Positions 1-18,658 of a stretch of DNA of 23,088 nt are shown in pieces. The translations under genes and the position numbers were made by a program. Location of the stretch: the IMG/VR virus record IMGVR_UViG_2563366797_000001; one strand, 5' to 3'. Position 1 is the stretch's first letter, and the number at the start of each line of letters is the position of its first letter. The notes beneath the pieces were generated by a model. It was not told the DNA's origin, made no database searches, and saw only the letters and a list, made by a program, of their open reading frames with translations. This stretch comes from a virus. Lineage: Duplodnaviria > Heunggongvirae > Uroviricota > Caudoviricetes.

Positions 1-211
1 TTGAGAAGCGGTGTAAGTGAACTGCAGTTGCCATGTTTTACGGCAGTGAGAGCAGAGATAGCGCTGATGTCCGGCAGTGCTTTTGCCGTTACGCACCACC
101 CCGTCAGTAGCTGAACAGGAGGGACAGCTGATAGAAACAGAAGCCACTGGAGCACCTCAAAAACACCATCATACACTAAATCAGTAAGTTGGCAGCATCA
201 CCTATCACGGC

Positions 212-421
212 ATGCGAATTGAGCTTAAAGAACCAAATGGTAAAGCCCCGACGAAAGAGCAGATCGCCTGGATGCGCAGGCTTAGAGAGGAAGGTTACTA
301 CGTCGTTCTTGCGTATGGTGCAGAACAAGCGATAACCGCCATCCTGGAATACATAAGCCTTAAAAAGGGTGAGGCTATTGAGCATGTATTGAACGGCGAC
401 AAGTGGTTGTATGCTGCTTAA
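212..421 (+). CDS. VRR-NUC-like nuclease, C-terminal fragment (possible remnant)
   Basis: 69-aa ORF with ...YHGMRIELK...EQIAWMRRLREEGYYVV..., resembling the (D/E)xK C-terminal half of VRR-NUC domains. The same frame has a TAA at 185-187 and no upstream frame carries the expected N-terminal half, so it is probably truncated. Confidence 0.3.
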   Translation: MRIELKEPNGKAPTKEQIAWMRRLREEGYYVVLAYGAEQAITAILEYISLKKGEAIEHVLNGDKWLYAA

Positions 422-426
422 AATAA

Positions 427-443
427 TAAATTAATTAGTGCAT
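427..443 (-). promoter_or_regulatory. Degenerate C1 operator-like site (GCACTAAT core)
   Basis: Minus-strand reading ATGCACTAATTAATTTA; close to the Op99a-type variant at 18095-18111 but with about 3 mismatches to the ATTGCTCTAATAAATTT consensus. Confidence 0.3.
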
Positions 444-487
444 ATGTGCTCTTTGATATAGCGCACATTAACATCGGGAGAATAATC

Positions 488-643
488 GTGTCATTCAAGG
501 CTAATTATGAATCGCTGGCATCGATCATGCCGCGTAATGAACAGGAAGCAGATGCTGTAGTGGACCCGGTAATCGCTGAAATGAATGCTCGCCTGGAGGC
601 TGAATTTGCAGCTGAGAATGAACATACCACCCAGGGCGACTAG
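488..643 (+). CDS. Small hypothetical protein (GTG start)
   Basis: GTG at 488 preceded by GGGAG; about 51 aa in the frame of ORF 446..643. No recognisable motif. Confidence 0.2.
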   Translation: MSFKANYESLASIMPRNEQEADAVVDPVIAEMNARLEAEFAAENEHTTQGD

Positions 644-1247
644 GACTGTTTTTTGTGTCGGTAGCGGTCCGTCACTCACTCGTGAGGACTGTGCTGCTAT
701 AGAAAAAACTGGCTGTTCAATCATCGCGGTTAACAATTCCTGGCAGATGTTCGATGACATTTATGCCTTATACGCCGGTGATTTGTCATGGTGGAAGCAA
801 TACGGATCCACCATACCGGGAGGGAGATTCCGCAAAGTGACAGCCAACCTGGCGGCGGCGAAATCATTTTCGTTGGAGTACAGGCGATATTGTGGACCGG
901 CGGAAGGGGTAAATAGCGGCGCGCAGGCTATCAGTCTGGCTGCTGAATCAGGGGCTGAAGTAGTGGTATTAGTCGGCTATGACTGTTCTCTGCAAAACGG
1001 CCTTCATTGGCATGGCGCGCACCCTCAAGCCCTACGGAATCCAACGCAGGTGTCTATTTCAAAATGGCAACAGCAGTTCCTGGATACCCGCAAAAAACAC
1101 GCAGATTTACATATTTTGAATGCAAGTAGGAGCAGTGCAATTCAATGTTTCCCAAGAATAAATTTAGAGGCAGTGATCGCGTTATTATCGTCGGCAGTGG
1201 CCCAAGCGCCGCAAACTTTGTTGCGCCGCGCGGAGTGCCGATTATAG
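618..1247 (+). CDS. Sialyltransferase/Maf-like (GT42/DUF115-like) putative glycosyltransferase, paralog 1
   Basis: VFCVGSGPSL...IIAVNNS...NSGAQAISLAAESGAEVVVLVGYDCS...HWHG, matching the recalled Cst-II/Maf pattern (GNGPSL loop, second strand, SG...A...LG...L.G.D, catalytic His region). Start could be 585 or 618. Confidence 0.5.
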   Translation: MNIPPRATRTVFCVGSGPSLTREDCAAIEKTGCSIIAVNNSWQMFDDIYALYAGDLSWWKQYGSTIPGGRFRKVTANLAAAKSFSLEYRRYCGPAEGVNSGAQAISLAAESGAEVVVLVGYDCSLQNGLHWHGAHPQALRNPTQVSISKWQQQFLDTRKKHADLHILNASRSSAIQCFPRINLEAVIALLSSAVAQAPQTLLRRAECRL

Positions 1248-1771
1248 CGGTCAATGGGGCCATCGACTGGCTTAACCGCGCTTCTTATTTTTTCACCCTT
1301 GATCCATCGCCAGACAATATGCGGCGCGTTGGTCGTGGCCGCCGTCGCCGTGGTGTTTGTTATTGCATGGCACTACCCGATGTTAAAGAACGTGAAGTCA
1401 GAGATGGCGTTCTGTGCTTCCGTCGTGTGGCTGAGCGCGGCACGGAGCCAAAAAATACGAATTCTCCCGAGTGGTGGGCGTGGCGCTGGTCCGCACATTT
1501 CGGCCTTTGCGAAGATGAGAATGAAATTGCCAGCGGCAATAGTGCATATGGTGCTCTGAACCTGGCTTTCCATATCGGATTCAAACATGTCGCCCTGGTG
1601 GGCGTTGACGCTACACAAGAACCACGCGTTCACTCCGGCGGCACGCCAAAAAATCTAAGTCACCTGCCTTTGTTATTCCAGTCTGCGCGTGAACAGATTG
1701 ACGTTGTTTCATGCGGGAAAATGGGAGGTATTCCGCAGATGACTCTTAAAGAATGGCTGAAGAATACATGA
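1145..1771 (+). CDS. Sialyltransferase/Maf-like (GT42/DUF115-like) putative glycosyltransferase, paralog 2
   Basis: [13 protein letters not shown]...IIAVNGA...[28 protein letters not shown]...VHSGGTPKN; same motif order as paralog 1. AGGAG lies upstream of the ATG; overlaps the paralog 1 tail by about 100 nt. Confidence 0.5.
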
Positions 1772-2445
1772 TGGCACCCACAATTTATCACCGTATCGAC
1801 GGTACCAAATACAGGAATGTCTGGGTTGTTGGTGATCTGCATGGTTGCTACACCAGACTGATGTCCGAACTCCATCGTGTGGATTTTGACCCGGCGCAGG
1901 ATTTACTGATATCGGTCGGCGACCTTATCGATCGCGGTACTGAAAATGTCGAATGTCTGGAACTATTGCAGATGCCCTGGTTCAGGGCAGTGATGGGGAA
2001 CCATGAGCGGCTGATGATTGATGCGTTAAGTCCAGATGGCAACGTGAATAACTGGCTAATGAATGGCGGTCAATGGTTCTTCATGCTGGACGCTGATCAG
2101 GAAATATTAGCCAGGGCGCTGGTGGAGTTGGTAAGACGACTGCCCTATATCATTGAGTTGAACACCGGGCAAGAAACTATCGTTATAGCCCATGCCGACT
2201 ATCCGGATAATGAATATCAATTCGGTAAGGAGGTGCCGCTTTTCAACGTTGTCTGGGCGCGCGAGCGTATCAGTGATTCGATGGATGATATTGGTGGCGA
2301 AATTTCTGGCGCAGATCGTTTTATCTTTGGTCACACTCCGGTGAAAAGCCCGAAGACATTCTGGAATCAGCATTATATCGACACAGGTGCCGTATTTTGC
2401 GGAAACCTGACATTGATGAAAGTGAAAGGTGATGGTGCAGCATGA
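1768..2445 (+). CDS. Ser/Thr protein phosphatase, lambda PPase / PrpA-PrpB family (metallophosphoesterase)
   Basis: Near full-length match to recalled lambda phosphatase: [44 protein letters not shown] at 1768 overlaps the upstream stop (ATGA); 1753 is an alternative start. Confidence 0.85.
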
Positions 2446-3143
2446 AGATTGCTTTAGTTCTTCGCTCTGGTGGTGACTATAACGCTTCCGATGTGCAGTG
2501 GCTGGTTAATCAACTGCCAAAAGGCTATGAAATTATTTGCCTGACAGACCTGAAGCGTTTACATGTACCTGGCGTCAAAGTTGTCCCATTGATCAACCAG
2601 TGGCAAAAGTGCCGTGGCTGGTGGGCGAAAATCGAGTTGTTCCGACCGGATATAACCGATGATCTGTTCTATCTGGATTTGGACACGGTTATTGCCGGTG
2701 ATATACGCCCAATCCTAGAGAATCCACCAACCAGCTTCACCATGCTTAGGGATTTTTACCATCCACAATATCGTGGCAGCGGTGCCCTGTGGATACCAAA
2801 TAGTGTAAAAGCGCATATCTGGAGTGCATTCTGGCAAGATCCGGAAGGTTGGATTGCTCGTTGTGTTACTACTGAATGCTGGGGTGAGCAGGGGTTTTTG
2901 CGGAAGGTTATGGGTGATGATACACCAGCATTTCAGGATCTGTATCCGGGATGGTTTGTAAGTTACAAGGCCGATGTTGTGGAACCTGGTTCGAAATATG
3001 CGAGCGCGCGTTACTCCAGGGGGAATGGGGCATTACCAAAAGACTGCCGAATAATCTTTTTCCACGGCAAACCGCGACCTCGCGAAGTGTCAGAGGATTG
3101 GCTTCCCCTTATCAGCTCATTTTTTGAGCGAGAATCAGAATAA
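2442..3143 (+). CDS. GT-A fold (GT8-like) nucleotide-sugar glycosyltransferase
   Basis: N-terminal strand [12 protein letters not shown], DxD-type motif [14 protein letters not shown]-terminal FFHGKPRP resembling the GT8 H.G..KPW motif. ATGA start-stop overlap with the phosphatase gene. Confidence 0.5.
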
Positions 3144-3144
3144 T

Positions 3145-3161
3145 ATTGCTCTAATAATTCC
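3145..3161 (+). promoter_or_regulatory. C1 operator-like site
   Basis: ATTGCTCTAATAATTCC, two bases after the glycosyltransferase stop codon. Confidence 0.55.
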
Positions 3162-3169
3162 ATATTTTT

Positions 3170-3199
3170 AAAACGTGATGTACACTCATCACGTTTTTT
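3170..3199 (+). terminator. Intrinsic terminator hairpin (bidirectional-looking) between two inverted operator sites
   Basis: AAAACGTGATG-TACACT-CATCACGTTTT followed by T-run; preceded by T/A run on the other side. Confidence 0.55.
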
Positions 3200-3210
3200 A
3201 TTAGAGCAAT
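3194..3210 (-). promoter_or_regulatory. C1 operator-like site (inverted relative to 3145-3161)
   Basis: Minus-strand reading ATTGCTCTAATAAAAAA. Confidence 0.55.
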
Positions 3211-3224
3211 CTATAAGGTGCACT

Positions 3225-3443
3225 ATGTGGCCATTCCGACGGAAATATCACTACTGGCTGATCGCCTTTGTTACGCCGACCGGCGGTATCAGGCATGTCA
3301 TCACCAGGTATCGCAACAAGAGACTCACCTTAGCCAGAATTTTACAGGCTGCCATAGGTGAGGGACTGGATACAAATTGCGTAGTCCTTCCACCTTCATA
3401 CTTAGGAAAAATGACCGAAGCACAAGCTAATACGGAACTTTGA
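3225..3443 (+). CDS. Hypothetical protein (72 aa)
   Basis: ATG with AAGGTG about 7 nt upstream, directly after the operator site. No recognisable motif. Confidence 0.3.
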   Translation: MWPFRRKYHYWLIAFVTPTGGIRHVITRYRNKRLTLARILQAAIGEGLDTNCVVLPPSYLGKMTEAQANTEL

Positions 3444-3602
3444 AATGAGCACTTCAGCACAAAACCAATCAATCGAAAATGTATCTAGAGGAAACTGCGG
3501 CAAGAAGACTTCTCGATGTTTGCTATGCACGTAGCGATGCATGGGAAAAAGAGAACGGCGGCACTATTTACGTTCGCTGATAGTTACAGTGTCACTTTTA
3601 AT

Positions 3603-3633
3603 GCTGGTGGAGTGCTCCCACCAGCATTTTTTT
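3603..3633 (+). terminator. Rho-independent terminator
   Basis: GCTGGTGG-AGTGCTC-CCACCAGC followed by ATTTTTTT. Confidence 0.55.
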
Positions 3634-3652
3634 CGTCCAATGAGGAGGGCAT

Positions 3653-4159
3653 TTGAGTATTTTCAATAAACACGCACACCAGGAACGTCCGTACATCGTC
3701 ATAGTAGATATTGATGGGACGATATCAGAGGCAACGGAAGACAGGCTGCATTTACTTCCACCACCTGGCAAAGGTGCATTAACAGAGCACTGGAACGAGT
3801 TTAACCTTGCCTGTGACACTGATGCTCCCATCACTCCAGTTATTGATATGGTGCGCCAGTTGTCCGGCATTTACACCCTCTGGTTTGTAACCGGGCGCTG
3901 TGAGATAGCCAGGGATAAAACACGAGCCTGGTTGCGTAAGCACGTAACAAATGGGGCTGAGCCTTTGCTATCTATGCGTCCTGCCACCGATGACAGAAAT
4001 GACGGTCCAGCAAAGATTGATCTCCTGAAGAAAATTGGTCTAAGTAAAATTGCGTTCGCGCTGGAAGATAAGATTGAAGTGGCGCGTGTTTTCAGGAGTC
4101 ACGGCGTACTTACGTTAATGGTCAGGGAGTATGAAAACGCGCTTCTCCATCAACAATAA
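3653..4159 (+). CDS. HAD-superfamily phosphatase-like protein
   Basis: TTG start with strong GAGGAGGG Shine-Dalgarno. HAD motif I VIVDIDGTI (DxDGT), motif II LWFVTGR, acidic motif FALEDK. Confidence 0.5.
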   Translation: MSIFNKHAHQERPYIVIVDIDGTISEATEDRLHLLPPPGKGALTEHWNEFNLACDTDAPITPVIDMVRQLSGIYTLWFVTGRCEIARDKTRAWLRKHVTNGAEPLLSMRPATDDRNDGPAKIDLLKKIGLSKIAFALEDKIEVARVFRSHGVLTLMVREYENALLHQQ

Positions 4160-4175
4160 TTGCTCTAATAAATCT
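4159..4175 (+). promoter_or_regulatory. C1 operator site with promoter-like TTGATT immediately downstream
   Basis: ATTGCTCTAATAAATCT followed by CTTGATTTTT; the same operator-TTGATTTTT arrangement recurs at 18642. Confidence 0.6.
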
Positions 4176-4257
4176 TGATTTTTAAAACAGAGAAAGTGAA
4201 AATAAAAACATGCCGCAAGGCGCGGCATGTATCCAATCAATCACAGGAGCTGAAAAT

Positions 4258-4344
4258 ATGAACACGGCATTCAAAATCATTATGGCCGCGATCTATTTCT
4301 GGCTGTTCTCTATCACTTTTGGCAGCATTGTCGCGCATGGGTAA
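4258..4344 (+). CDS. Small hydrophobic peptide (28 aa), possible membrane peptide or toxin-like
   Basis: MNTAFKIIMAAIYFWLFSITFGSIVAHG; AGGAG 8 nt upstream; downstream of the 4159 operator and a hairpin (4210-4231). Too short for the ORF track. Confidence 0.3.
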   Translation: MNTAFKIIMAAIYFWLFSITFGSIVAHG

Positions 4345-4423
4345 GGGGAGTATATTAGCCATTTGGAACCCCACGGTCTCTTGCGGGTTTAATTAAGAAC
4401 CCGCAAGAAAAATACGAATTGGG

Positions 4424-7400
4424 CTATATTTTTCCGCCTACGCCTTTAAACTTCTCAATAAACGAGACGATTTTCTGGAAAACTGCCTGTTTTTTCGTTT
4501 TATATTGCGGATTCAACGGACTAAGTTTTGGTAATGTTTCGTTTAATTCTGTGCCATTTTCGGTGGCGTATTCGCGTTTTAAAGACGTGCGAATATAGCG
4601 TTTTGCTGCATCTTCATTGAGATTTTCTTCTTTTATCAATGCTTCTGCTTCACGTTGCTGTTCGCGTTGAGCAAACGTAAAGAATGCCTCAATGATACTG
4701 GCTTTGTCTGGTAAATCATCCAGGTTCGTTTGCTGAATAAAATCGACCACCAGGCCCTCTTTCGCCCGGTTCCCCAGGCTTGAACGAATTAAGCGTTTGA
4801 CCTCTTCGATCATTTCGCCCTTGCCTTTATTTTGTCTATTGTGTTCGAAAATCAGTCCAAGGATATAATCCAGGTTTATTTCCTGAGACTTCAGCAAATC
4901 GACCTCAAAAACTACGTCATCCCAGTCAGTGGTTGATTTCTCTTTTTTCTCAGCTTCTTTCTCACGGCGCTGCCAGTCGCGAATATCGTTATAGGCAGAA
5001 CGATAATCCTGAATCTTGCGATCAGCAGGGAGACGAATTGTTTGCAATTCAGCGAACTTTTCATTATCCACATAATGTTCTGCTTTGAATTTTTCTACCG
5101 CAACAGGATCGCTAAGATCGATTTGTTGCAGGGCTTTTAGCGTGGCAAATTCATCATAGTTTTGCAGGATGTTCTCGGCACGCAGGTATTCGCCAAACAG
5201 TTTAACGAAGTCTTTCTTCTCTTTTTCACTTTCAATACTGGTAGGGTCAGGGAACCGTTGTTCCAGTTCTGAAACTACTGTCATGAAGCCGCGTTTAGCT
5301 TCACCAGTGGCAGCATCAGTAAAGCCTTCCATATACTCTGCATAACTCTTTTCTAAAACCACATTTTTGGTATTTTTGTCACCAAACAGCGTTATGGCAT
5401 CAATGGTTGAGCGTTCCAGATCCCGGAACGTGACAATATTACCGAAGGTTTTAGTCGCGTCATAAATGCGGTTGGTGCGGGAGAATGCCTGCATCAGGCC
5501 GTGAAAACGCAAGTTTTTATCGACGAATAGCGTGTTTAATGTTGGAGCATCGAAGCCGGTTAAAAACATCCCCACGACAATTAGCAGATCGATATCCTGA
5601 TTTTTAACCCGCTGGGCTAAATCACGATAGTAGTTCTGAAAACCGTTACTGTCGGTGCTAAAGTTAGTTTTAAAATGGCTGTTATATTCACGAATTGCAG
5701 CGTCCAGAAACTCTTTAGCACTGCTGTCCATTGCGCTGGTATCAAAAGTTTCATCGGAAATTTCACCAATGGCATTTTGTTCTTCATTGGCGGCAAAGGA
5801 GAAGATTGTCGCAATACGCAGCGGTTTATAGGTAGCCGATTTATTAGCGGCTTCTTCTTGTAACCGTTTAAACGTCGCATAATAGGCTTTCGCGGCATCC
5901 ACGCTGCTCACTGCCAACATAGCATTAAAACCTTTTGAGCCAGGGAAGGTACGGTGGGTTTTCTGGCGGAAATTATTCAGAATATATTGCGTGATTTCCT
6001 GAATACGCATGGGATGAAGAAACGCCTGCTGATTTTCAGCCGCACTCAGTTTTTTCTCGTCAGTTTCTGTCTCTAAAGACTTAAACTGTGGCCGCACATC
6101 GTTGTAGTCCACCTTGAATTTGAGCACTTTTTCGTCACGAATCGCATCGGTAATTACATACGAATGCAATTCACGACCAAATACGCTGGCGGTTGTTTCT
6201 GAGCCTAAGGCGTTTTCCGGGAAAATAGGGGTGCCGGTAAAACCAAACTGATAATAGCGTTTGAATTTCTTCTTCAGGTTTTTCTGCGCTTCTCCAAACT
6301 GGCTGCGGTGGCATTCATCAAATATAAACACCACTTGCTGATTATATACAGGCAGATCGCTTTCTGCTTTCATCAGGTTATTGAGTTTCTGAATAGTAGT
6401 GACGATAATTTTGTTATCGTCCTTATCCAGATTTCGTTTAAGACCTGCGGTATTTTCCGAGCCGTTGACGCTGTCTGGCGAAAAACGCTGATATTCCTTC
6501 ATGGTCTGGTAATCGAGGTCTTTCCTGTCGACCACAAAGAAGACTTTATCAATAAAGTCCAGCTCTGTTGCCAGACGCGCGGCTTTAAAGCTGGTGAGGG
6601 TTTTACCAGAACCGGTAGTGTGCCAGATATACCCACCGCTTTCCGGTTTTGACCAGTTCTTCGCTGTAAAGGAACTCTTAATTTTCCACAGAATGCGCTC
6701 GGTGGCGGCAATCTGGTACGGTCGCATTACCAGTAGTGTCTGACTGCTGTCAAAAACGCTGTAGTTCACCAGAACATTAAGCAGAGTATGTTTCTGGAAA
6801 AAGGTAGCGGTAAAGTCTTTGAGGTCTTTAATCAGTGTATTGTCTGATTTAGCCCAGTTCATGGTGAAGTCAAAACTGTTTTTATCGCGCTTTGTGGTGT
6901 TGGCAAAATAACGGGTATCAGTGCCGTTGGAAATGACGAACAGCTGCAGATACTTAAACAGGGAATTTTCGCTGTTAAAACTCTCTTTACTGTAACGATG
7001 TATCTGGTTGAAAGCCTCACGAATCGCCACCCCGCGTTTTTTTAGTTCGATTTGCACCAGCGGTAAACCATTAACCAGGATCGTGACGTCATAACGGTTA
7101 GCATGAGAACCCGTCTGTTCAAACTGCTGGATAATCTGCACCTTATTGCGCATGAGATTCTTTTTATCTATCAAATAGATGTTCTCAAGACGCTCGTCAT
7201 CAAAAATAAAGTCGCAAATATAGTCGATATGGATTTTACGGGTCTTATCCAGAATGCCATCGCTCGGGTTATCCAGATACTGCTCCGTGAAACGCCGCCA
7301 CTCGCTGTCATTAAACACCACACCATTGAGGTTCTGAAGCTGTTCCCGAACATTGGCTAGCATCGCCGACTGTGATTTTACGGATATAAATTCATAGCCC

Positions 7401-7540
7401 TGATTCCGCAGGTCCTGAATCAGTTCACGTTCCAGGTCCGATTCGCTCTGGTAGCTGTCGCCTGTTTGCTCAGCTTTGATGTACTTATCAAGGACGATAA
7501 AGTTATTGGATTCAGCAATGGTGTGTGTTTGATGAGTCAT
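4424..7540 (-). CDS. hsdR: Type I restriction enzyme R subunit (HsdR)
   Basis: 1038 aa; Walker [18 protein letters not shown]-box-like [11 protein letters not shown], helicase motifs; last gene of the M-S-R operon. Confidence 0.95.
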
Positions 7541-7661
7541 AGCGCATCCTTTGTGCCGTCTGGCAAGGGCCGGAAGGGAGTTAAGGGCGACTTCCGGCGT
7601 GTAGAAAATAGTCTATATACTGACCGGATGTTAAGGTGGTCCGGTCTGTAAAAATGCTCAA

Positions 7662-8288
7662 TTAATTACTGGCTGTTTCAGGTTTTGGGAAACTGAACAG
7701 TAAATCACGATAGTACTCGTATTGTTTCTGGCGCAACTCGATTTCACGCGGGAGACCTTCGGTGATGGAGTTGGTCAGTGTGTCGAATTTGTCCAGAATT
7801 CGCACGATTTCAGACTGGATGGCAAGGGATTTTTCCGGATTATCCGGGCAGGGGATTGGGATTTTTTTTTGAGAATAATTACTAATCCATTGGCGTTTAT
7901 GGTCTCCCTCTGCGAATTCACTTGGTAATGTATTGAGCCAATAGTAAACATATTTCAGTAAGGTTTTATTATCATCACATGATGTAACCATTTTCATGGC
8001 CGATGATTTTGCCTTAAAGTCAAAATCCACCCATTTATTAGCGGTGGTGAAATCATCAAAAATTATTACAGGTGCCTTTGATGCCTGATAAATACCATGA
8101 GTCTCATTTGTGTATCCAAGAATAAATGTTTTTCCGGCAGTAAGAACCGGTATGGTATATGTGTCGTGATAATCTTTTGCTTTTACCAAATACTTTGTTG
8201 GCTGTTCATATTTGGTTATTTCCCCCAATGGCAACCACTCAACTTCAACCCCATCCAGCAATTTTTCCAGATAACTCATCTCGCTCAT
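7662..8288 (-). CDS. hsdS: Type I specificity subunit (HsdS), short single-TRD form
   Basis: 208 aa; start overlaps the hsdM stop by 4 nt (coupling); position between hsdM and hsdR; length is consistent with one target-recognition domain plus a conserved region. Confidence 0.8.
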
Positions 8289-9847
8289 TTCTGCACCTCG
8301 CAGCCTTCAATTTCAGCCACAATCGCATCAATATCTTTGCGCAACTGGTCGATTTTGCTGACCGTGGTTTTCAGCTCAGCATTCAGCTCACCGATATCGA
8401 TAATTTCGCGAGTATCTTTCGCTTCAACATAACTGCTCACCGACAGGTTATAGTCATTCGCGACAACAGTCTCAAACGCAACAGATTTCGCCAGATGGGC
8501 AACATCTTCCTTGCCGGCAAATACCTGCATAATCTGTTCGATATGGGCATCGGTCAGGATATTGTTGTTAGTCTCTTTTTTGAACAATTCGCTGGCATCA
8601 ATAAACTGAACTTTGGTATCCGTTTTATGTTTAGACAGCACCAGAATATTGACGGCAATGGTGGTGCCAAAGAACAGGTTCGGTGCCAGTGAAATCACGG
8701 TTTCGACATAGTTATTGTCGACCAGATATTGACGGATTTTCTGCTCTGCGCCGCCACGGTAAAAAATACCCGGGAAGCAGACAATCGCAGCACGACCTTT
8801 GGCCGAAAGATAGTTCAGCGCATGTAGTACAAACGCAAAGTCAGCTTTGGATTTGGGGGCCAGGACGCCAGCCGGGGCAAAACGTTCATCGTTAATCAGC
8901 GTCGGGTCATCGCTGCCAATCCATTTCACCGAATACGGCGGGTTAGAAACGATGGCATCAAACGGTTTTTCATCTCTGAAGTGTGGCTCAGTCAGTGTAT
9001 TACCCAGCTTGATATCAAACTTGTCGTAGTTGATGTTGTGCAAAAACATGTTCATACGTGCCAGGTTATAGGTTGTATGGTTGATTTCCTGACCAAAAAA
9101 GCCTTCTTCGATGATATGGTTATCAAACTGCTTTTTAGCCTGCAACAACAGTGAGCCGGAACCCGCTGCCGGGTCGTAGATTTTGTTAACGTTGGTCTGC
9201 CCGTGCATAGCCAGTTGTGCAATCAGCTTGGAGACGTGCTGCGGTGTAAAGAACTCACCGCCTGACTTACCGGCATTTGCCGCATAGTTAGAAATCAGGA
9301 ACTCATAGGCATCACCGAACAGGTCAATCTGATGTTCGTTGAAGTCACCAAGTTTTAACCCTTCAACCCCTTTCAGAACCGCAGCCAGGCGGGCATTTTT
9401 ATCTTTAACGGTGTTACCCAGGCGGTTACTGGTGGTATCGAAATCAGCAAACAAACCTTTGATGTCTGCTTCTGAAGGGTAGCCGTAAGCAGAACTTTCG
9501 ATAGCAACGAAGATGCTGTTTAAATCTGCGTTCAGTCTGTCATTGGTATTTGCTTTCGCAGCTACGTTGCAGAAAAGCTGACTTGGGTAGATGAAGTAGC
9601 CTTTGGTTTTGATGGCATCGTCTTTAATGTCATCAGTAATTACGCTGTCATCCAGTTTCGCATAACAGATGCTGTCATCACCGGCTTCAATATAGCTGGA
9701 AAAATTTTCGCTGATAAAACGGTAGAAAAGCGCGCCCAGAACGTATTGCTTAAAATCCCATCCATCGACCGAACCTCTGACATCGTTAGCAATTTGCCAG
9801 ATTTGACGATGAAGCTCTGCACGTTGTTGAATACTTGTCATTTTCAT
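8285..9847 (-). CDS. hsdM: Type I N6-adenine DNA methyltransferase (HsdM)
   Basis: 520 aa; NPPY motif ([11 protein letters not shown]), AdoMet-binding region ([10 protein letters not shown]), typical HsdM N-terminus. Confidence 0.95.
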
Positions 9848-9986
9848 CCACTTATTTCAGGCTTATGTAATTGGCGGTGATTCTACAGCAACTTGGATGC
9901 TTTAGCAGTTCGGACATTAGGCTACGAATGACCTGCCTAGAGGTTTGTTAAGCCGCAAAGTGCTGGTGCTTTATGTCTGTGAAGTT

Positions 9987-11881: not shown

Positions 11882-11898
11882 ATTGCTCTAATGTATTG
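11882..11898 (+). promoter_or_regulatory. C1 operator site upstream of the lpa-position gene
   Basis: ATTGCTCTAATGTATTG, directly after the stop of the preceding gene. Confidence 0.6.
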
Positions 11899-11968: not shown

Positions 11969-12283
11969 ATGTTACTTAACTGGCAGGGACGCCACTTCAT
12001 GGAAATAAATCACTCACGAATAACATCGTACGAGATTGCGAATTACATGATCCGCACTAAATCTCTTCTATCAGCGAAAGAACTCGCAGCAATTCTTGAA
12101 AAGGAATACCCGCATCTGGATGTCGATAAGCGCGATGTTTATCTGCGCTTAAAAGCTATCGCTGTGTCTAAGTATTCGTCTGTTTTGATTGATGACAGTA
12201 CGAACGAAAGCGTGAAAATAACTGGTCAGTGCTGGAAGCAGCTGAATTCATCGAGGCGCATGGCGGGAAAGTGCCGCCCCTGA
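11969..12283 (+). CDS. Possible late-promoter-activator (Lpa-position) protein
   Basis: 104-aa ORF downstream of a C1 operator; assignment by position only. Confidence 0.3.
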
Positions 12284-12600: not shown

Positions 12601-12989
12601 TGGCCAGAAGTTGCGTAACGGATCCACGTTGGCGCGAGCTGGTGGCGCTATATCGTTATGACTGGATTGCGGCCGCTGATGTTTTGTTCGGCAAAACACC
12701 TACCTGGCAGCAGGATCTGATTATTGAGTCTGTGCAGGAACAGGGTAGCAAGACATCTGTTTCGTCTGGTCACGGTACCGGGAAATCAGACATGACTTCT
12801 ATCATGATCATGTTGTTCATAATCATGTATCCCGGTGCCCGCGCCATTATCGTTGCGAACAAAATTCAGCAGGTAATGACCGGTATATTCAAGTACATCA
12901 AGATAAACTGGGCTACTGCCACCAGCCGTTTTCCATGGCTTGCTGATTATTTTGTTCTGACAGAAACCGCTTTCTATGAGGTTACTGGT
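12600..12989 (+). pseudogene. pacB: pacB (terminase large subunit), N-terminal part, interrupted by IS2
   Basis: Walker [10 protein letters not shown]; reading frame runs into the IS2 end at 12990 and resumes in frame at 14326. Confidence 0.8.
12985..12989. repeat. IS2 target-site duplication, left copy (CTGGT)
   Basis: CTGGT immediately outside the IS2 terminus; identical copy at 14321-14325. Confidence 0.85.
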
Positions 12990-13000
12990 TGGATTTGCCC

Positions 13001-13906
13001 CTATATTTCCAGACACCTGTTATCACTTAACCCATTACTGGCTTGCTGCCGTAGATATTCCCGTGGCGAGCGATAACCCAGTGCACTATGCGGATGCCAT
13101 TCGTTATAATGCTCGAACGCCTCTGCAAGGTTCTTTGCTGCCGTTAACCCGTCTGGTTTGGGCATGACACTGATGTAGTCACGCTTTATCGTTTTCACGA
13201 AGCTCTCTGCTATGCCGTTACTCTCCGGACTCCGCACCGCCGTGCTCTTCGGTTCAAGCCCCAACATCCGGGCAAACTGCCGTGTTTCATTAGCCCGGTA
13301 GCATGAACCATTATCCGTCAGCCACTCTACTGGAGACGCCGGAAGCTCGTTGCCGAAGCGGCGTTCCACCGCTCCCAGCATGACGTCCTGTACTGTTTCA
13401 CTGTTGAAGCCGCCCGTAGTGACCGCCCAGTGCAGTGCCTCACGGTCACAGCAGTCCAGCGCGAACGTGACTCGCAGTTTTTCTCCGTTATCACAGCGGA
13501 ACTCGAACCCGTCAGAGCACCATCGCTGATTACTTTCTTTCACAGCCACTCTGCCTGTATGTGCCCGTTTCGATGGCGGTACAGCAGGTTTTCGCTCAAG
13601 CAACAGCGCATTCTGGCGCATGATCCGGTAAACACGTTTGGCATTGATCGCAGGCATACCATCAAGTTCTGCCTGTCTGCGAAGCAGCGCCCATACCCGA
13701 CGATAACCATACGTGGGCAGCTCTCCGATAACATGGTGTATACGGAGAAGCACATCCGTATCATCAGTGTGACGACTGCGGCGGCCATCCATCCAGTCAT
13801 CGGTTCGTCTGAGAATGACGTGCAACTGCGCACGCGACACCCGGAGACAACGGCTGACTAAGCTTACTCCCCATCCCCGGGCAATAAGGGCGCGTGCGCT
13901 ATCCAC
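13001..13906 (-). CDS. insD: IS2 transposase OrfB (InsD)
   Basis: 301 aa, DDE integrase-type sequence (...WCSDGFEF...LTDNGSCY...). Confidence 0.9.
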
Positions 13907-14229
13907 TTTTTTGCCCGTCCATATTCAACGGCTTCTTTGAGGAGTTCATTTTCCATCGTTTTCTTGCCGAGCAGGCGCTGGAGTTCTTTAATCTGCTTCA
14001 TGGCGGCAGCAAGTTCAGAGGCAGGAACAACCTGTTCTCCGGCGGCGACAGCAGTAAGACTTCCTTCCTGGTATTGCTTACGCCAGAGAAATAACTGGCT
14101 GGCTGCTACACCATGTTGCCGGGCAACGAGGGAGACCGTCATCCCCGGTTCAAAACTCTGCTGAACAATTGCGATCTTTTCCTGTGTGGTACGCCGTCTG
14201 CGTTTCTCCGGTCCTAAGACATCAATCAT
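13864..14229 (-). CDS. insC: IS2 OrfA (InsC)
   Basis: [41 protein letters not shown]...; helix-turn-helix N-terminus; start taken at MIDVL (121 aa). Confidence 0.9.
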
Positions 14230-14320
14230 CTGCTCTCCAATGACTAGTCTAAAAACTAGTATTAAGACTATCACTTAAATAAGTGATACTGGTTGTCTGG
14301 AGATTCAGGGGGCCAGTCTA

Positions 14321-14325
14321 CTGGT
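14321..14325. repeat. IS2 target-site duplication, right copy (CTGGT)
   Basis: Identical to 12985-12989. Confidence 0.85.
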
Positions 14326-15420
14326 AAAGGTGTATGGACTGTAGTACCGAAGGGCTTTCGTCTGGGAAGTGAAGAAGTTCTCGCCGGTGAACACGCAGAT
14401 CATCTTCTGTATATTATCGATGAAGCCTCCGGTGTCAGTGATAGAGCTTTCGGTATCATCACCGGTGCTCTTACCGGACAGGATAACCGCATCTTATTAC
14501 TGTCACAGCCTACACGCCCAAGCGGCTATTTCTACGATACTCACCATAAACTGGCCAAGCGTCCTGGTAACCCAGATGGCGTTTATACGGCGATCACGCT
14601 TAACAGTGAGGAATCACCGCTGGTAACGTCAGAATTTATCAAAATGAAGCTGGCGGAGTACGGCGGGCGTGATAACCCTATGTACATGATTAAGGTACGC
14701 GGCCTATTCCCTAAATTACAGGACGGCTTCCTTCTTGGACGTGATGAGGTTGAACGTGCGACGCGGCGGAAAGTCAAGATTGCCAAAGGATGGGGCTGGC
14801 TTGCATGTGTGGACGTTGCTGGTGGTACAGGACGGGATAAGTCCTTTATCAATATCATGATGGTGTCCGGCCAGCGAAATAAACGCCGTGTAATCAACTA
14901 TCGAATGCTGGAATACACAGACGTTACAGAAACGCAGCTTGCCGCCAAAATTTTCGCAGAATGTAATCCTGAGCGATTCCCCAATATCACCATAGCGATA
15001 GACGGCGATGGCCTGGGTAAAGCAACGGCGGATCTGATGTACGAGTATTATGGTATTACCGTACAGCGTATACGCTGGGGTAAAAAGATGCATAGCCGTG
15101 AAGATAAGAGCCTGTACTTTGATAAACGTGCTTATGCCAACGTTCAAGCCGCAGAGGCCGTAAAATCTGGTCGTATGAGACTGGATAAGGGTAATGAAAC
15201 TATTGAGGAAGCGTCGAAAATCCCTGTAGGGATTAACTCCGCAGGTCAATGGAAGGTGATGAGTAAGGAGGATATGAAGAAAAAACTCAACCTGCACTCA
15301 CCAGACCATTGGGATACATATTGTTTCGCTATGCTGGCGGATTATGTTCCCCAGGACGAAGTGCTTAGCGTCGAAGACGAAGCGCAGGTTGATGAAGCTC
15401 TGGCATGGCTTAATGAATAA
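14326..15420 (+). pseudogene. pacB: pacB (terminase large subunit), C-terminal part
   Basis: 365 codons in frame with the N-terminal fragment once IS2 and one duplication copy are removed; reconstructed length about 495 aa. Confidence 0.8.
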
Positions 15421-15423
15421 ACA

Positions 15424-15440
15424 CTTGCTCTAATAAATTG
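15424..15440 (+). promoter_or_regulatory. C1 operator-like site heading the antirepressor module
   Basis: CTTGCTCTAATAAATTG, followed by TTGACT and a possible -10. Confidence 0.55.
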
Positions 15441-15572
15441 TGTTTTTTGACTGCCGATGTTACATTGAACCTGACCTCTTGCGCCTTGAGGCATTTTCGG
15501 TTTATGCTTATCAGGCACCTCATTAAAACGGGTGCCGGGATTGAGACCCCGGATAATGTCAAAGGCGACACA

Positions 15573-15594
15573 GACGCCGAAAGCGTCTTTTTTT
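15573..15594 (+). terminator. Intrinsic terminator-like hairpin inside the antirepressor leader
   Basis: GACGC-CGAAA-GCGTC followed by T7; flanked by complementary GACACA/TGTGTC. Confidence 0.5.
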
Positions 15595-15779
15595 GTGTCA
15601 TGCCATCGCACAGCCATACGTAGCGTTTAGCTCCGAAATCAATGGTAGTGCTGGCTGGGCTGCCGAAAGGCAGGCCGGTTCCCTTTGACGCCGGTAGTCT
15701 CAACCCAGTCAGTGCTACCGCCATTGAGATTGAGACCTCACGCGGTAGCTCCTTAACTTAGTCAAAGGAGGCTGCCATT

Positions 15780-16001
15780 ATGGCTACTGTCCCTACCCCA
15801 ATTCATCCTGAATTTATCTGGCGCTTTTACTCCTGCCAAAAACGTCACTATCACTTCGTTATTGCACCGACAGAAGATGAGGCCCATTCTCAGCTTCCTG
15901 ACGCCCCATGTATTTTCTCTGCCCGTTTTTCCACTGATTCACGCAATTCTCTCAGTTACTGGTGCCTCCCTGTTAACGCTTCTGCTCAGGAGGGACTATG
16001 A
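15780..16001 (+). CDS. Small protein translationally coupled to the antirepressor gene (Icd-like position)
   Basis: 73 aa; strong AAGGAGG Shine-Dalgarno; stop overlaps the downstream ATG (ATGA). Confidence 0.4.
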   Translation: MATVPTPIHPEFIWRFYSCQKRHYHFVIAPTEDEAHSQLPDAPCIFSARFSTDSRNSLSYWCLPVNASAQEGL

Positions 16002-17116
16002 GAACGTCATTAGTTACCCGTGAAGAGATGATCGAGGCAATTGAACAGCACACTGCCTGTATCAGTACTAGGGATATACCGGGCGTTATTGCCAACTACT
16101 TCATGATCACCAAACAACTTTACCGGAGAAAGGACAAGAACGCAGTTCACCGCATCCTGCTGTCTGATATCCGCGAATACCTGCTCGAACAGGGGCATCT
16201 GAATTACGCAACCGCCGCAGCCGAATCACGCAAGGAGGCACACAGAATGAAAGCAACTAACGTTAAATCAGAAAAAATTCATGCACCTTCAGTTCAGGAA
16301 TCGGAGCTGGTGGTTGTTCAGAATCAGTCTGATGAAATTCCCGTTCTGGAATGGCAGGGAGTGCGTGTAGTGACAACCGAGACTCTTGCTAGAGGGTATG
16401 GGACAGAAACAATCCGTATTCGCCAAAATCATCATGAGAACAAAGTACGCTTTGTTGAAGGGAAGCACTTTTTCAAAGTTGAAGGAGAATCATTGCGCGA
16501 GTTGAAGCACAGAGTAGCTTTAAACTACTCTGTAAAAATTGCTCGCAATGTTCGCTCACTCACCCTCTGGACAGAACGCGGCGCAGCCCGCCACGCTAAA
16601 ATGCTCGAAACCGATCAGGCATGGGCATTCTTTGAAAAACTGGAAGACAGCTACTTCCGACAAAAAGAACAGCAACCGATCGCAATCCCCCAGACGCTTC
16701 CTGAAGCCCTACGCCTGGCTGCCGAACTGGCTGAACAAAAGCAACTTCTGGAACAGAAAGCCCACCAGCTAAATCAGCAGCTGGTGGCCGCCGCTCCTAA
16801 AGTCGATTTTGCCGACCGGGTATCAGTAGCTAAAGGGATCCTGATTGGGAATTTTGCAAAGGTTGTTGGACTTAAGCAAAACGCGCTGTTTGTCTGGTTA
16901 CGGGAGAACGGCATCCTGATAGCGTCCGGTGGACGTAAAAATGTGCCGTTCCAGCAGTACATCAACGCGGGGTATTTCACGGTGAAAGAAGTGGTGCTGG
17001 ATGATGAAGATGGCTACCAGATACGGTTGACGCCTCAATTAACGGGTAAAGGCCAGCAGTGGTTGACGCGTAAACTGCTCGATGCTGGCTTGTTAAAACC
17101 GGTGGCGGCTGAATAA
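15998..17116 (+). CDS. Antirepressor-like protein (N-terminal ORF6N domain, C-terminal KilAC/Ant domain)
   Basis: 372 aa; N-terminal ...WQGVRVVTTETLARGYGTETIRIRQNHHENKVRFVEGKHFF... (ORF6N pattern), C-terminal ...FVWLRENGILI...YINAGYF... (Ant C-terminal pattern); convergent with c1. Confidence 0.7.
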   Translation: MRTSLVTREEMIEAIEQHTACISTRDIPGVIANYFMITKQLYRRKDKNAVHRILLSDIREYLLEQGHLNYATAAAESRKEAHRMKATNVKSEKIHAPSVQESELVVVQNQSDEIPVLEWQGVRVVTTETLARGYGTETIRIRQNHHENKVRFVEGKHFFKVEGESLRELKHRVALNYSVKIARNVRSLTLWTERGAARHAKMLETDQAWAFFEKLEDSYFRQKEQQPIAIPQTLPEALRLAAELAEQKQLLEQKAHQLNQQLVAAAPKVDFADRVSVAKGILIGNFAKVVGLKQNALFVWLRENGILIASGGRKNVPFQQYINAGYFTVKEVVLDDEDGYQIRLTPQLTGKGQQWLTRKLLDAGLLKPVAAE

Positions 17117-17123
17117 TGGAAGA

Positions 17124-17145
17124 ATGCCCGGTTGATGCCGGGCAT
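17124..17145. terminator. Hairpin between the convergent antirepressor and c1 genes
   Basis: ATGCCCGG-TTGATG-CCGGGCAT; no strong T-tract on either side. Confidence 0.35.
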
Positions 17146-17148
17146 AAT

Positions 17149-18000
17149 TTATTGCGCGCTTTCGGGGTTGTCGTTTACTGGCTGCCCCTTCTTGGTTTTA
17201 CGGCTGCGCGTAACTGATGCGGCTGACTTAACCTTTTTCTCTTCGCGAGTGATGGCAATTTGTTTTTTTACATTTTCAATATCTGCCAGGCGATATATTT
17301 TTGCTTGCGGCCAGCGGTCGCAGATGATCGGTTCTATGGAGTCATAAAGGCTAAATTTTGCTTTTTCGAATTCACCGTTGATGATAATTCCATCACGGAG
17401 AGTTTCATCGCAGATAAACACGCCACACAGTGGCACATGGTAACTAACTGATTTACCATCATTGTAGTTAGGGCTACTGGAAATGTAGTGGACGCGCAGC
17501 ATTGTTTCGCTAAAGCCGTGTACGCGCATACGGAATTTTTCATCCTCCGGGTACTGCTTCATTAGCTCTTTTGTTGCTTCCAGGTTCTCTATGTATTTCG
17601 CACTGTGCTCATTGATCCCCGCGCTTTTTTGGATGCGAATGTCCTTATCAATCAGATGAATAATGCGGCCAGCGGTCATGTTGACGCTGTTCACAGCTTC
17701 TGTCTGATAAGTTGTAACCTTACGCACACCGCGAAGGATGTTAGGCACTGGATATAAAATAGTCTTTGGGATATTGAGGTCTGGGTACTGTTCCAGTTCC
17801 CGCGCCATTAAAGTCCATTTATCAATTTCAGCCTGAATGCTGTCAGTTTCTTTGAACGGTAGAACGACAACCGGGCGTACAGGACGACCGTCGCTGGCTG
17901 TATCAACGTGTTGGGCGCGTGCAACAGCTTTTTTTAGAAAGAGATCCCTGAAGCTGACGAACTCCTGGTACAGTTGTTCGCCGTAGACATAATTTATCAT
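17149..18000 (-). CDS. c1: C1 repressor of lysis (primary immunity repressor)
   Basis: 283 aa, MINYVYGEQLYQEFVSFRDLFLKKAVARAQHV..., matches recalled P1 C1; GGAGGAGG Shine-Dalgarno. Confidence 0.95.
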   Translation of the reverse strand: MINYVYGEQLYQEFVSFRDLFLKKAVARAQHVDTASDGRPVRPVVVLPFKETDSIQAEIDKWTLMARELEQYPDLNIPKTILYPVPNILRGVRKVTTYQTEAVNSVNMTAGRIIHLIDKDIRIQKSAGINEHSAKYIENLEATKELMKQYPEDEKFRMRVHGFSETMLRVHYISSSPNYNDGKSVSYHVPLCGVFICDETLRDGIIINGEFEKAKFSLYDSIEPIICDRWPQAKIYRLADIENVKKQIAITREEKKVKSAASVTRSRKTKKGQPVNDNPESAQ

Positions 18001-18094: not shown

Positions 18095-18111
18095 AGATTT
18101 ATTAGTGCATT
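18095..18111 (-). promoter_or_regulatory. C1 autoregulatory operator (Op99a-type)
   Basis: Minus-strand AATGCACTAATAAATCT between coi and c1. Confidence 0.6.
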
Positions 18112-18320
18112 TATTGTGAGTCTAACTGGTTAGTTGCCATGAGATATTCGATTGTGTCAGTGAGGTCATCCAGGTCGTCTTGGGTGATGCGGTACTCCTG
18201 ATTGGATATCTTTGAGTAGTGTTCAGCAATGGCGCGGGCAGCGTCGGTTTCGGCAGGGTCTACAGATAAAGCGTTAGAGCAATGTCTAACGTCGTCGATG
18301 GTTGGTTGAATGAAAGCCAT
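18111..18320 (-). CDS. coi: Coi, C1 inactivator
   Basis: 69-aa acidic protein immediately upstream of c1 on the same strand, as in P1 immC. Confidence 0.85.
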   Translation of the reverse strand: MAFIQPTIDDVRHCSNALSVDPAETDAARAIAEHYSKISNQEYRITQDDLDDLTDTIEYLMATNQLDSQ

Positions 18321-18558
18321 AATTATGTCTCACTGTATTGACAACACAGAGCCTGAAGCTCTGACCTACTGTTTCACCCATGATCCATGCTGGGGTAATC
18401 TAACAACATTGCGCTGTGTGTAAGATGAGCAATGCATAGCTGTAATGCCGTTGTATAAGGTTTCCCTGTTTGCTCATTTCCTTCTGAGCCGCTCTACAAC
18501 GCTGAAGACACATTAAATAGTGAATCCAAAGTCGTATTACGAAACGGCGGCAAAACTA

Positions 18559-18575
18559 TAATTTATTAGAGCAAT
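18559..18575 (-). promoter_or_regulatory. C1 operator site (immC upstream region)
   Basis: Minus-strand ATTGCTCTAATAAATTA. Confidence 0.6.
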
Positions 18576-18641
18576 TGTCAAACAACTATGAAAAACAATC
18601 CAGTTTTTAGCTGGTGGAGTGGGATTTTTCTCTCAAAATTT

Positions 18642-18658
18642 ATTGCTCTAATAATTCT
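18642..18658 (+). promoter_or_regulatory. C1 operator site with adjacent TTGATT promoter element
   Basis: ATTGCTCTAATAATTCT followed by TGATTTTTGTG. Confidence 0.6.

Follow-up and report, generated by a model that had tools for sequence, protein, structure and literature searches.

The pmgN to pap block of a decayed P1-like plasmid is a conserved phage P1 operon that may encode a lytic-cycle glycosylation cassette

The window analyzed here is the whole stretch of 23,088 nucleotides of IMG/VR virus record IMGVR_UViG_2563366797_000001 (Caudoviricetes), and the block under study occupies its positions 425–4175. An earlier reading made from the letters alone (the sequence-only reading) had taken the block for an undescribed accessory module whose gene combination was not known from canonical phage P1. 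Window positions 1–6000 were compared with phage genomes by megablast. Positions 203–4348 were collinear with P1 (AF234172, 79210–84482) in two pieces at 96–98% identity, and also matched P7, RCS47, SJ46, JL22, and other P1-like phages at 97–98% identity. The gene order is that of the annotated record AF234172, pmgN-pmgO-pmgP-ppp-pmgQ, pmgR, pmgS, and pap. All genes but pmgS have kept their P1 length, with 0–8 amino-acid differences each; pmgS alone is not intact, and the remaining seven genes are. The block is almost certainly a canonical, conserved segment of the P1 backbone, an operon and not a new cargo module, and it is already known, having been annotated in P1 since the 2004 genome record. 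The sequence-only reading had itself named the same block in reference P1 as the finding that would speak against novelty, and the comparison with AF234172 placed it there. The features of the block are as follows.

389–415, plus strand: PpmgN, predicted sigma-70 promoter (TTGAAC ... TATGCT), position-equivalent to P1 79396–79422 in the AF234172 annotation.
428–444, minus strand: C1 operator Oppp (Op83), TATGCACTAATTAATTT, 1 nt from P1 Oppp and 4 mismatches away from the consensus; a monovalent C1-controlled operator in the annotation.
488–643, plus strand: pmgN, 51 amino acids, unknown function; GTG start after a GGGAG Shine-Dalgarno sequence, phrog_2350 at 3e-37, P1 pmgN length.
585–1247, plus strand: pmgO, DUF115/MptE-like protein of the Maf/sialyltransferase fold; probable true start at 618.
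1145–1771, plus strand: pmgP, second DUF115/MptE-like protein and distant PmgO paralogue; phrog_2111 at 4e-132, cross-match to phrog_4603 at 2e-5.
1753–2445, plus strand: ppp, lambda-type Ser/Thr protein phosphatase, probable start at 1768; Pfam Metallophos at 1e-15, 1G5B at 7e-95.
2442–3143, plus strand: pmgQ, GT8-like retaining glycosyltransferase of the GT-A fold, assigned from an AF2 model, Foldseek, and a family profile.
3145–3161, plus strand: C1 operator OpmgRa (Op86a), overlapping the PpmgR −35 region; identical to P1.
3194–3210, minus strand: C1 operator OpmgRb (Op86b), identical to P1.
3225–3443, plus strand: pmgR, essential head-completion/head-tail joining gene, 72 amino acids; protein identical to P1 PmgR.
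3445–3580, plus strand: pmgS remnant with a 29-codon stub (3445–3534); aligned to P1 by BLASTN in two pieces whose offsets differ by 1,127 bp.
3600–3638, plus strand: intrinsic-terminator-like hairpin (11-bp stem, 3600–3628) and T-run, just 3' of the pmgS stop.
3653–4159, plus strand: pap, phosphatase of the haloacid dehalogenase (HAD) type resembling the 3'-phosphatase of polynucleotide kinase/phosphatase (PNKP), phosphatase domain only; Pfam HAD_PNKP at 3e-11, phrog_415 at 6e-56, TTG start after GAGGAGG.
4159–4175, plus strand: C1 operator OpmgT (Op88), identical to P1 and with 1 mismatch to the consensus.

The open reading frames listed in the sequence-only reading were present at the coordinates it gave, and its inventory was real as far as it went; pmgN (488–643), the essential pmgR (3225–3443), and the pmgS stub (3445–3534) had been overlooked. 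It had also described four genes (618–3143) as chained by overlapping start and stop codons. This is true of ppp and pmgQ, which share an ATGA stop/start at 2442–2445, and of pmgP and ppp, which overlap by ATGA provided that ppp starts at 1768. That start was preferred because it is the one used by the Prokaryotic Genome Annotation Pipeline (PGAP) and because it fits the alignment with the lambda phosphatase. It is not true of pmgO and pmgP, which overlap by 103 nt in different frames, with no overlap of start and stop codons. The terminator suspected ahead of pap is represented by the strong terminator-like hairpin with its T-run, and the same hairpin is located 3' of the pmgS stop codon in P1. 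A 1,127-bp deletion at 3486/3487 has frameshifted pmgS and left the 29-codon stub. The deletion junction was matched exactly in only two of 680 matching plasmids (NZ_CP010179 and NZ_CP086387). No transmembrane segments were predicted in the proteins of the block.

The window was scanned for the C1 operator consensus with up to three mismatches allowed, and nine sites were found against 0.07 expected. The four operator sites that had been seen at the ends of the block are all genuine, being 0–1 nt from those of P1, but they do not bracket one module, because Op86a and Op86b sit inside the block and Op88 belongs to the next unit. The layout shows two predicted C1-operator-controlled units, pmgN to pmgQ and pmgR-pmgS-(pap), and both, being C1-repressed, would switch on when the prophage enters lytic growth. 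Six more operator-like sites were located in the window, at 11882, 15424, 18095, 18559, 18642, and 20680; the site at 11882 is P1 Olpa (Op94), and those at 18095–18658 are the c1/coi/cre operators.

Conservation was sampled in 80 P1-like IMG/VR contigs, which came from a scan with a PmgO alignment (all P1-like, matches at 100% identity). PmgN, PmgO, PmgP, Ppp, PmgQ, PmgR, PmgS, and Pap were found at 90–100% identity in essentially all of them; for the seven other than PmgN the range was 93–100%. PmgT, encoded by the next gene downstream, was found in only 45. In a published comparison of 54 P1-like phage-plasmids, pmgR and pmgS are listed among the most conserved P1-like genes, and variable region 8 extends from pmgT to humD (PMC9603915). 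The block is accordingly not variable cargo, as had been supposed. A cargo region does lie beside it, carrying the type I restriction-modification genes, but its boundary had been misplaced: cargo starts only after pap, with P1 homology ending at 4348 and picking up again at 9948 (boundary 4348/4349). The flanks of the block contain three features.

1–202, strand unassigned: end of the insertion sequence IS1, which truncates pmgM; it matches thousands of Escherichia coli IS1 copies, and the IS1/pmgM junction is identical in NZ_CP086387.
212–421, plus strand: pmgM', the last 69 codons of pmgM, which encode the C-terminus of this P1 VRR-NUC protein; phrog_2363 at 1e-39 (positions 124–192 of 192), RefSeq 'VRR-NUC domain-containing protein'.
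4349–9947, minus strand: type IC hsdR-hsdS-hsdM cargo, replacing exactly P1 pmgT to humD; Pfam EcoR124_C, Methylase_S, and N6_Mtase.

The hsdS gene of this cargo encodes only 208 amino acids with a single target-recognition domain, that is, a half-size specificity subunit. The P1 GenBank record remarks on the likeness of both flanks to those of the EcoDXXI hsd locus.

The sequence-only reading had gone further and proposed a C1-silenced, variable accessory, defence, or counter-defence module in which glycosylation of DNA or virion proteins would act as anti-restriction. The block adjoins hsdRMS cargo, its C1 operators are real, and phage glycosyltransferases can hypermodify DNA (bioRxiv 10.1101/2023.12.21.572611). 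These points are set against the presence of the block at 97–98% identity in reference P1 and all its relatives, its conserved backbone location (PMC9603915), and a PADLOC-DB scan of all seven proteins (E ≤ 0.01), in which no defence-system family was matched. Phages with in-frame single deletions of pmgN, pmgO, pmgP, ppp, pmgQ, pmgS, or pap plate normally, and for hosts with EcoA, EcoB, or EcoK they are scored as showing 'normal restriction' (Table S3 of PMC9024508); because the single knockouts are restricted normally, the anti-restriction idea is negative for type I systems. DNA glycosylation was rejected as well: the pathway for 5-hydroxymethylcytosine or 5-hydroxymethyluracil is absent here, as are the JGT-like and GT-B enzymes to which the known DNA glycosyltransferases belong (bioRxiv 10.1101/2023.12.21.572611). 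An undescribed module of this kind is highly improbable.

The same deletion study found pmgR to be essential, with heads and tails left unjoined when it is deleted (PMC9024508). Genome-wide CRISPR interference also scored pmgO, pmgP, ppp, pmgQ, pmgS, and pap as non-essential (PMC10695390). The two studies conflict over pmgN, which is essential by CRISPR interference (PMC10695390) and viable as an in-frame deletion (PMC9024508); a polar or operator-proximal dCas12a effect may account for the discrepancy. No literature was found that assigns a function to PmgO, PmgP, PmgQ, or Ppp/NinI, or to HdmB, HdmC, and HdmD.

The description of PmgO and PmgP as sialyltransferase/Maf-like paralogs was right at the level of the fold. 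Each protein cross-matched the PHROG family of the other, both gave sub-threshold matches to the Pfam MptE-like family, and BLASTP aligned the two with E=0.003 over the N-terminal GSGPS...IIAVN motif. Their fold is common to Maf, MptE, and GT42 enzymes, with Maf as the top fold match. Weak profile matches to the GxGPS and SG..GxD motifs of CstII were obtained (E=0.1–0.6), and an invariant HWHGxH motif is a candidate for the catalytic base. The PmgP family comprises 248 representative clusters, and some of its members carry a methyltransferase domain as a fusion. At fold level, PmgO and PmgP appear to be distant paralogues within the DUF115/Maf/sialyltransferase fold, which also houses pyrophosphokinases.

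For PmgQ, sequence-only PDB searches with the single protein were uninformative, as they were for PmgO, and family profiles and predicted structures were needed. No Pfam family was matched by PmgQ at E ≤ 0.01, hence no Glyco_transf_8 match at the gathering score. The AlphaFold (AF2) model of PmgQ had a predicted local distance difference test score of 95.5, and the top 50 Foldseek matches to it were all GT8 enzymes, namely Gat1, glycogenin, GlyE, LgtC, and XXYLT1 (E 3e-8 to 2e-6, template modeling scores 0.5–0.6). The family profile matched Gat1 (3e-8) and glycogenin (about 1e-5) in the PDB, with the DxD, GDQG, and H-x-G...P-W motifs aligned. In an alignment of 56 PmgQ sequences, W60-W61-x-K63 and D79-L80-D81 were invariant; G148, D149, Q150, H208, G209, P211, and P213 (GDQG, FHGxPRP) were at least 90% conserved and lined up with the Gat1/glycogenin motifs. 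Fold search, profile, and motifs thus agree with the earlier call of a GT8-like glycosyltransferase, and the modeled PmgQ is well supported as a 'GT8-like' GT-A enzyme, though not as a curated member of the family.

The two phosphatases were also identified correctly. Ppp is a close homologue of the lambda phosphatase (1G5B, E=7e-95, full length), its motifs are intact (GDLHG at 27, GDLIDRG at 56, GNHE at 82), and its Pfam Metallophos score is 59 bits against a cutoff of 21.5. The gene stands alone in lambda and D6, and a D6-like Salmonella contig has the order N-O-P-Ppp-Q-R-S. Because the pmgO-pmgP-pmgQ trio occurs without Ppp elsewhere but with Ppp in the D6-like contig, Ppp is read as a lineage-specific (P1/D6) insertion that entered between pmgP and pmgQ and left the genes translationally coupled. 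The HAD phosphatase at 3653–4159 is Pap and is of the PNKP type (PF25109 HAD_PNKP, 44.1 bits against a cutoff of 27.6; DIDGT at residues 19–23). With 168 amino acids, it matches the phosphatase part of the profiles only and lacks the P-loop kinase of a bifunctional T4 Pnk-type enzyme. A link of pap to the adjacent type IC restriction-modification genes, considered by analogy with PrrC and T4 Pnk, was dropped, since pap is at the same place in P1, where there is no hsd locus. Ppp and Pap are probably independent accessory enzymes.

The diversity of the family outside P1 was surveyed in a scan seeded with the Citrobacter (non-P1) PmgO branch, and the 80 most similar non-P1 viral loci were compared; loci are given with our own L numbers. 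The three genes are adjacent without Ppp in a Citrobacter rodentium-type lambdoid prophage (L007), between the lysis genes and the terminase (41–57% identity), and in a divergent P1-like plasmid of Pantoea (L174, 46–65% identity). In L008 (6001–7131), PmgO and PmgP form one 376-amino-acid protein that is followed by PmgQ, again without Ppp, and this fusion matches Pfam MptE-like above threshold (44.6 bits), with matches in both halves. A Martelella HK97-like prophage (L171) has the order O-X-Q-methyltransferase between capsid/connector and head-closure/tail-completion genes. In a Pseudomonas HK97-like prophage (L172), a fusion of PmgO with an S-adenosylmethionine (SAM)-dependent methyltransferase (4931–6010) precedes a PmgQ-like protein, between head-closure and gp10-like genes. 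A PmgQ-like protein occurs alone in a Mu-like head module (L004).

The PmgO-like gene was followed by phrog_6804 in 61 of the 80 loci (275 amino acids; profile match to the GT9 heptosyltransferase WaaF at 5e-4), and a class I SAM methyltransferase came after these two in 54. These cassettes sit between the lysis genes and the HNH/small terminase genes, or in the connector cluster, at the head-closure/neck genes, of HK97-like phages (e.g., L140). The recurrent PmgO-like/phrog_6804/SAM methyltransferase cassette was observed in about 60 diverse viral contigs (L089–L168; e.g., L140, 5974–7917).

Such company bears on the possibility that the block merely gathers unrelated accessory enzymes, with PmgO and PmgP acting as MptE-like pyrophosphokinases or other non-glycosyltransferases in the synthesis or activation of a small molecule, while Ppp, PmgQ, and Pap would each work on host targets independently. 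It would accord with the name of the Pfam family (MptE-like), with the independent insertion of Ppp, which stands alone in other phages, and with the many genomes in which PmgQ and PmgO each occur alone. On the other side, the PmgO family is tied by neighbourhood and fusion to GT8-like, GT9-like, and Nucleotid_trans-like genes, Maf is the top fold match and the CMP-binding motifs of CstII are matched (CMP, cytidine monophosphate), and the P1 genes are translationally coupled. Linkage to a sugar-activating gene, described below, speaks against it as well. A glycosyltransferase role was preferred over a pyrophosphokinase role because PmgO-type genes are repeatedly linked to glycosyltransferase genes of several families, and a set of unrelated enzymes is improbable.

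The sugar-activating gene is kdsB, which encodes the synthetase of CMP-Kdo (Kdo, 3-deoxy-D-manno-oct-2-ulosonic acid). In the Pantoea P1-like plasmid L174 it follows pmgQ at a distance of 2.4 kb and in the same orientation, at the place of P1 pap. Its product scores 254 bits against the 155-bit cutoff of the kdsB equivalog model TIGR00466 and matches KdsB structures in the PDB at about 1e-66. The element belongs to Pantoea sp. CCBC3-3-1, and the gene is at L174 8070–8834, equal to NZ_CP034366 62597–63361. Among 50,697 phage records, kdsB was present in only six.

PmgO, PmgP, and PmgQ probably form a glycosylation cassette. They would be soluble cytoplasmic enzymes that together build a short glycan in lytic growth. 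PmgO and PmgP would act as paired DUF115/Maf-type transferases, probably as a heterodimer, as their fusion in one phage (L008) suggests. The sugar that they transfer would most likely be a CMP-activated ulosonic acid, most plausibly Kdo, CMP-Kdo being the donor available in E. coli. Transfer of Kdo from CMP-Kdo by Maf enzymes has been shown in that species (bioRxiv 10.1101/2020.06.03.131540); a donor of the CMP-Kdo type is nevertheless proposed tentatively. PmgQ would be a GT8-type retaining alpha-hexosyltransferase using a uridine diphosphate (UDP)-sugar and Mn2+. Ppp, as a lambda NinI-type phosphatase, would probably be functionally independent, and Pap would be a separate PNKP-type 3'-phosphatase.

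As acceptor, a virion or other phage-made protein, glycosylated late in infection as in actinobacteriophages, is the first choice, and likewise a tentative one. It was chosen because the cassettes lie in late/structural operons, with that of P1 directly upstream of the head-completion gene pmgR, because the nearest solved relatives are protein glycosyltransferases, and because glycosyltransferase and methyltransferase cassettes of actinophages offer a parallel. In phage Corndog, glycosyltransferase and O-methyltransferase genes lie within the structural operon (PMC4351075), and virion glycosylation in actinophages is reported as demonstrated (PMC13313380, ref. 34).

The second choice of acceptor is the core of lipopolysaccharide (LPS) or another host glycoconjugate. 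This choice, less probable than the first, was considered because the enzyme families are those of LPS core synthesis, because chromosomal orphans exist, and because the P1 receptor is in the LPS core. PmgO and PmgP (Kdo-type) and PmgQ (WaaO/WaaR/WaaJ-like) would then act at the inner leaflet and modify the core while the phage grows lytically. Such remodelling of the envelope would mask the glucose of the LPS core, which is the P1 receptor, so that progeny are spared loss on debris or competing phages are excluded. The partner families are builders of the LPS core (GT8, the GT9-like WaaF match at 5e-4, Kdo/kdsB), the lipo-oligosaccharide GT8 enzyme LgtC is among the fold matches of PmgQ, and all named hosts are Gram-negative. 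Orphan chromosomal PmgQ homologues without phage context (L170, 6001–7915; L005 and L006, 6001–6633) lie beside icd in Erwinia, followed there by the O-antigen-ligase-like Wzy_C gene, and between lpdA and acnB in Pantoea floridensis. Against remodelling of the LPS, the operon is C1-repressed and so off in lysogens, where masking of the receptor would pay most; many phages carry the cassettes within late structural operons; the best structural relatives (Maf, Gat1, glycogenin, GlyE) are protein glycosyltransferases; the frequent methyltransferase partner is unusual in LPS core chemistry; and the knockouts have no plating phenotype. Remodelling of the LPS or host envelope is rather unlikely.

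Several observations weigh against a glycosylation cassette with a virion acceptor. PmgP and PmgQ were absent from 77 of the 80 non-P1 loci nearest to Citrobacter PmgO, and on this count the idea of O-P-Q as an obligatory trio was dropped. The Pfam PF01973 (MptE-like/DUF115) scores of PmgO (23.4 bits) and PmgP (20.9 bits) are below the gathering score of 34.6. Most PmgO cassettes lie where the lysis genes meet the terminase, a classic site of morons (accessory phage genes) as well, the orphan chromosomal PmgQ homologues point to a bacterial rather than a virion acceptor, and the association with kdsB is that of a single lineage. A faint precomputed Pfam match of the O::P fusion to the Kdo-III transferase WaaZ was not reproduced by hmmscan at E ≤ 10 and was not used. 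In liquid chromatography–tandem mass spectrometry of the P1 virion, no glycosylation was reported, though it was not looked for (PMC9024508), and the single knockouts show no plating or restriction phenotype (PMC9024508, Table S3); under laboratory conditions this silence fits either a virion or an LPS acceptor. With these points taken in, a P1 operon carrying a lytic-cycle glycosylation cassette of PmgO, PmgP, and PmgQ was retained, with modest confidence, as the best explanation overall.

A broader reading can be put forward as speculation. PmgO, PmgP, and PmgQ might be the model-phage members of a widespread glycosylation cassette of Gram-negative phages, in which a PmgO-type DUF115 enzyme is constant and GT8-like, GT9-like, or methyltransferase partners vary. 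The cassette would take its sugars from donors of the host LPS core (CMP-Kdo, UDP-hexose, and adenosine diphosphate-heptose) and attach them, in the late phase of infection, to virion proteins or else to the LPS core. As a whole, this reading is doubtful.

The window derives from a decayed P1-like IncY plasmid, for which NZ_CP086387 and NZ_CP010179 are the closest records. P1 positions 90224–91320 are missing at window position ~12199–12201, which removes the 3' end of lpa, the late promoter LPpac, the pac site, and the 5' end of pacA. Because these parts, including that of the late-promoter activator lpa, are missing, the element should be incapable of late-gene activation and of DNA packaging. 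What is left of pacA'/pacB has only about 84% identity to P1, compared with 96–98% elsewhere. An IS3-family insertion in pacB (window 12989–14382) comprises orfA with HTH_Tnp_1 and orfB with rve. A non-P1 insert between pacB and c1 (window 15421–17149) encodes a 372-amino-acid ORF6N + ANT/KilAC antirepressor (15998–17116).

The block is an operon of a textbook phage, conserved and shown to be dispensable, and its remaining value lies in P1 genes that have no assigned function and for each of which a P1 knockout exists. If the cassette reading is true, P1 would offer a ready means of finding out whether virions or host LPS are glycosylated with Kdo and hexose by Gram-negative phages, and it would shed light on a family that numbers several hundred gene clusters in phages. 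The widespread form of the reading, if true, would make this the first system for virion glycosylation from a classical coliphage, and the attachment of Kdo to protein would be a new modification.

Compared with the P1 operon itself (AF234172/NC_005856; HdmB, HdmC, and HdmD in P7), the block agrees, at about 98% nucleotide identity, in its genes and in their order, lengths, and overlaps, as well as in the promoter and all four C1 operators. It differs in the 1,127-bp frameshifting deletion of pmgS, in the upstream pmgM cut by IS1, and in the replacement of pmgT to humD by type IC hsdRMS. The relation of PmgO and PmgP to Maf (DUF115/Maf_flag10; PDB 5MU5) and to the GT42 enzymes CstI and CstII is more distant: they are only ~200 amino acids long and consist of the central domain alone, without the flanking acceptor-binding domains of Maf, they are two diverged paralogues below the Pfam threshold, and their fold is equally that of MptE and thiamine pyrophosphokinases. 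With the GT8 enzymes (glycogenin, Gat1, GlyE, LgtC, and WaaO/WaaR/WaaJ), PmgQ shares the GT-A fold, the DxD and GDQG motifs, and the C-terminal H-x-G...P-W metal/UDP motif, whereas it has no Pfam Glyco_transf_8 match, reaches template modeling scores of only 0.55–0.60, is 10–17% identical in sequence, and belongs to a separate phage-centred family, phrog_1962, which comprises over 100 clusters at 90% identity. Ppp matches the lambda phosphatase (NinI/ORF221; 1G5B) over the full length and has all the metallophosphoesterase motifs, but it sits within a glycosyltransferase operon, while the lambda gene is in the nin region. The cassettes of actinobacteriophages (Corndog gp35–38, in the portal-protease interval) involve other enzyme families and other hosts, and glycosylated virion proteins are demonstrated there; in both cases, small soluble sets of glycosyltransferases, with or without a methyltransferase, are placed in late structural operons and are dispensable for plaques.

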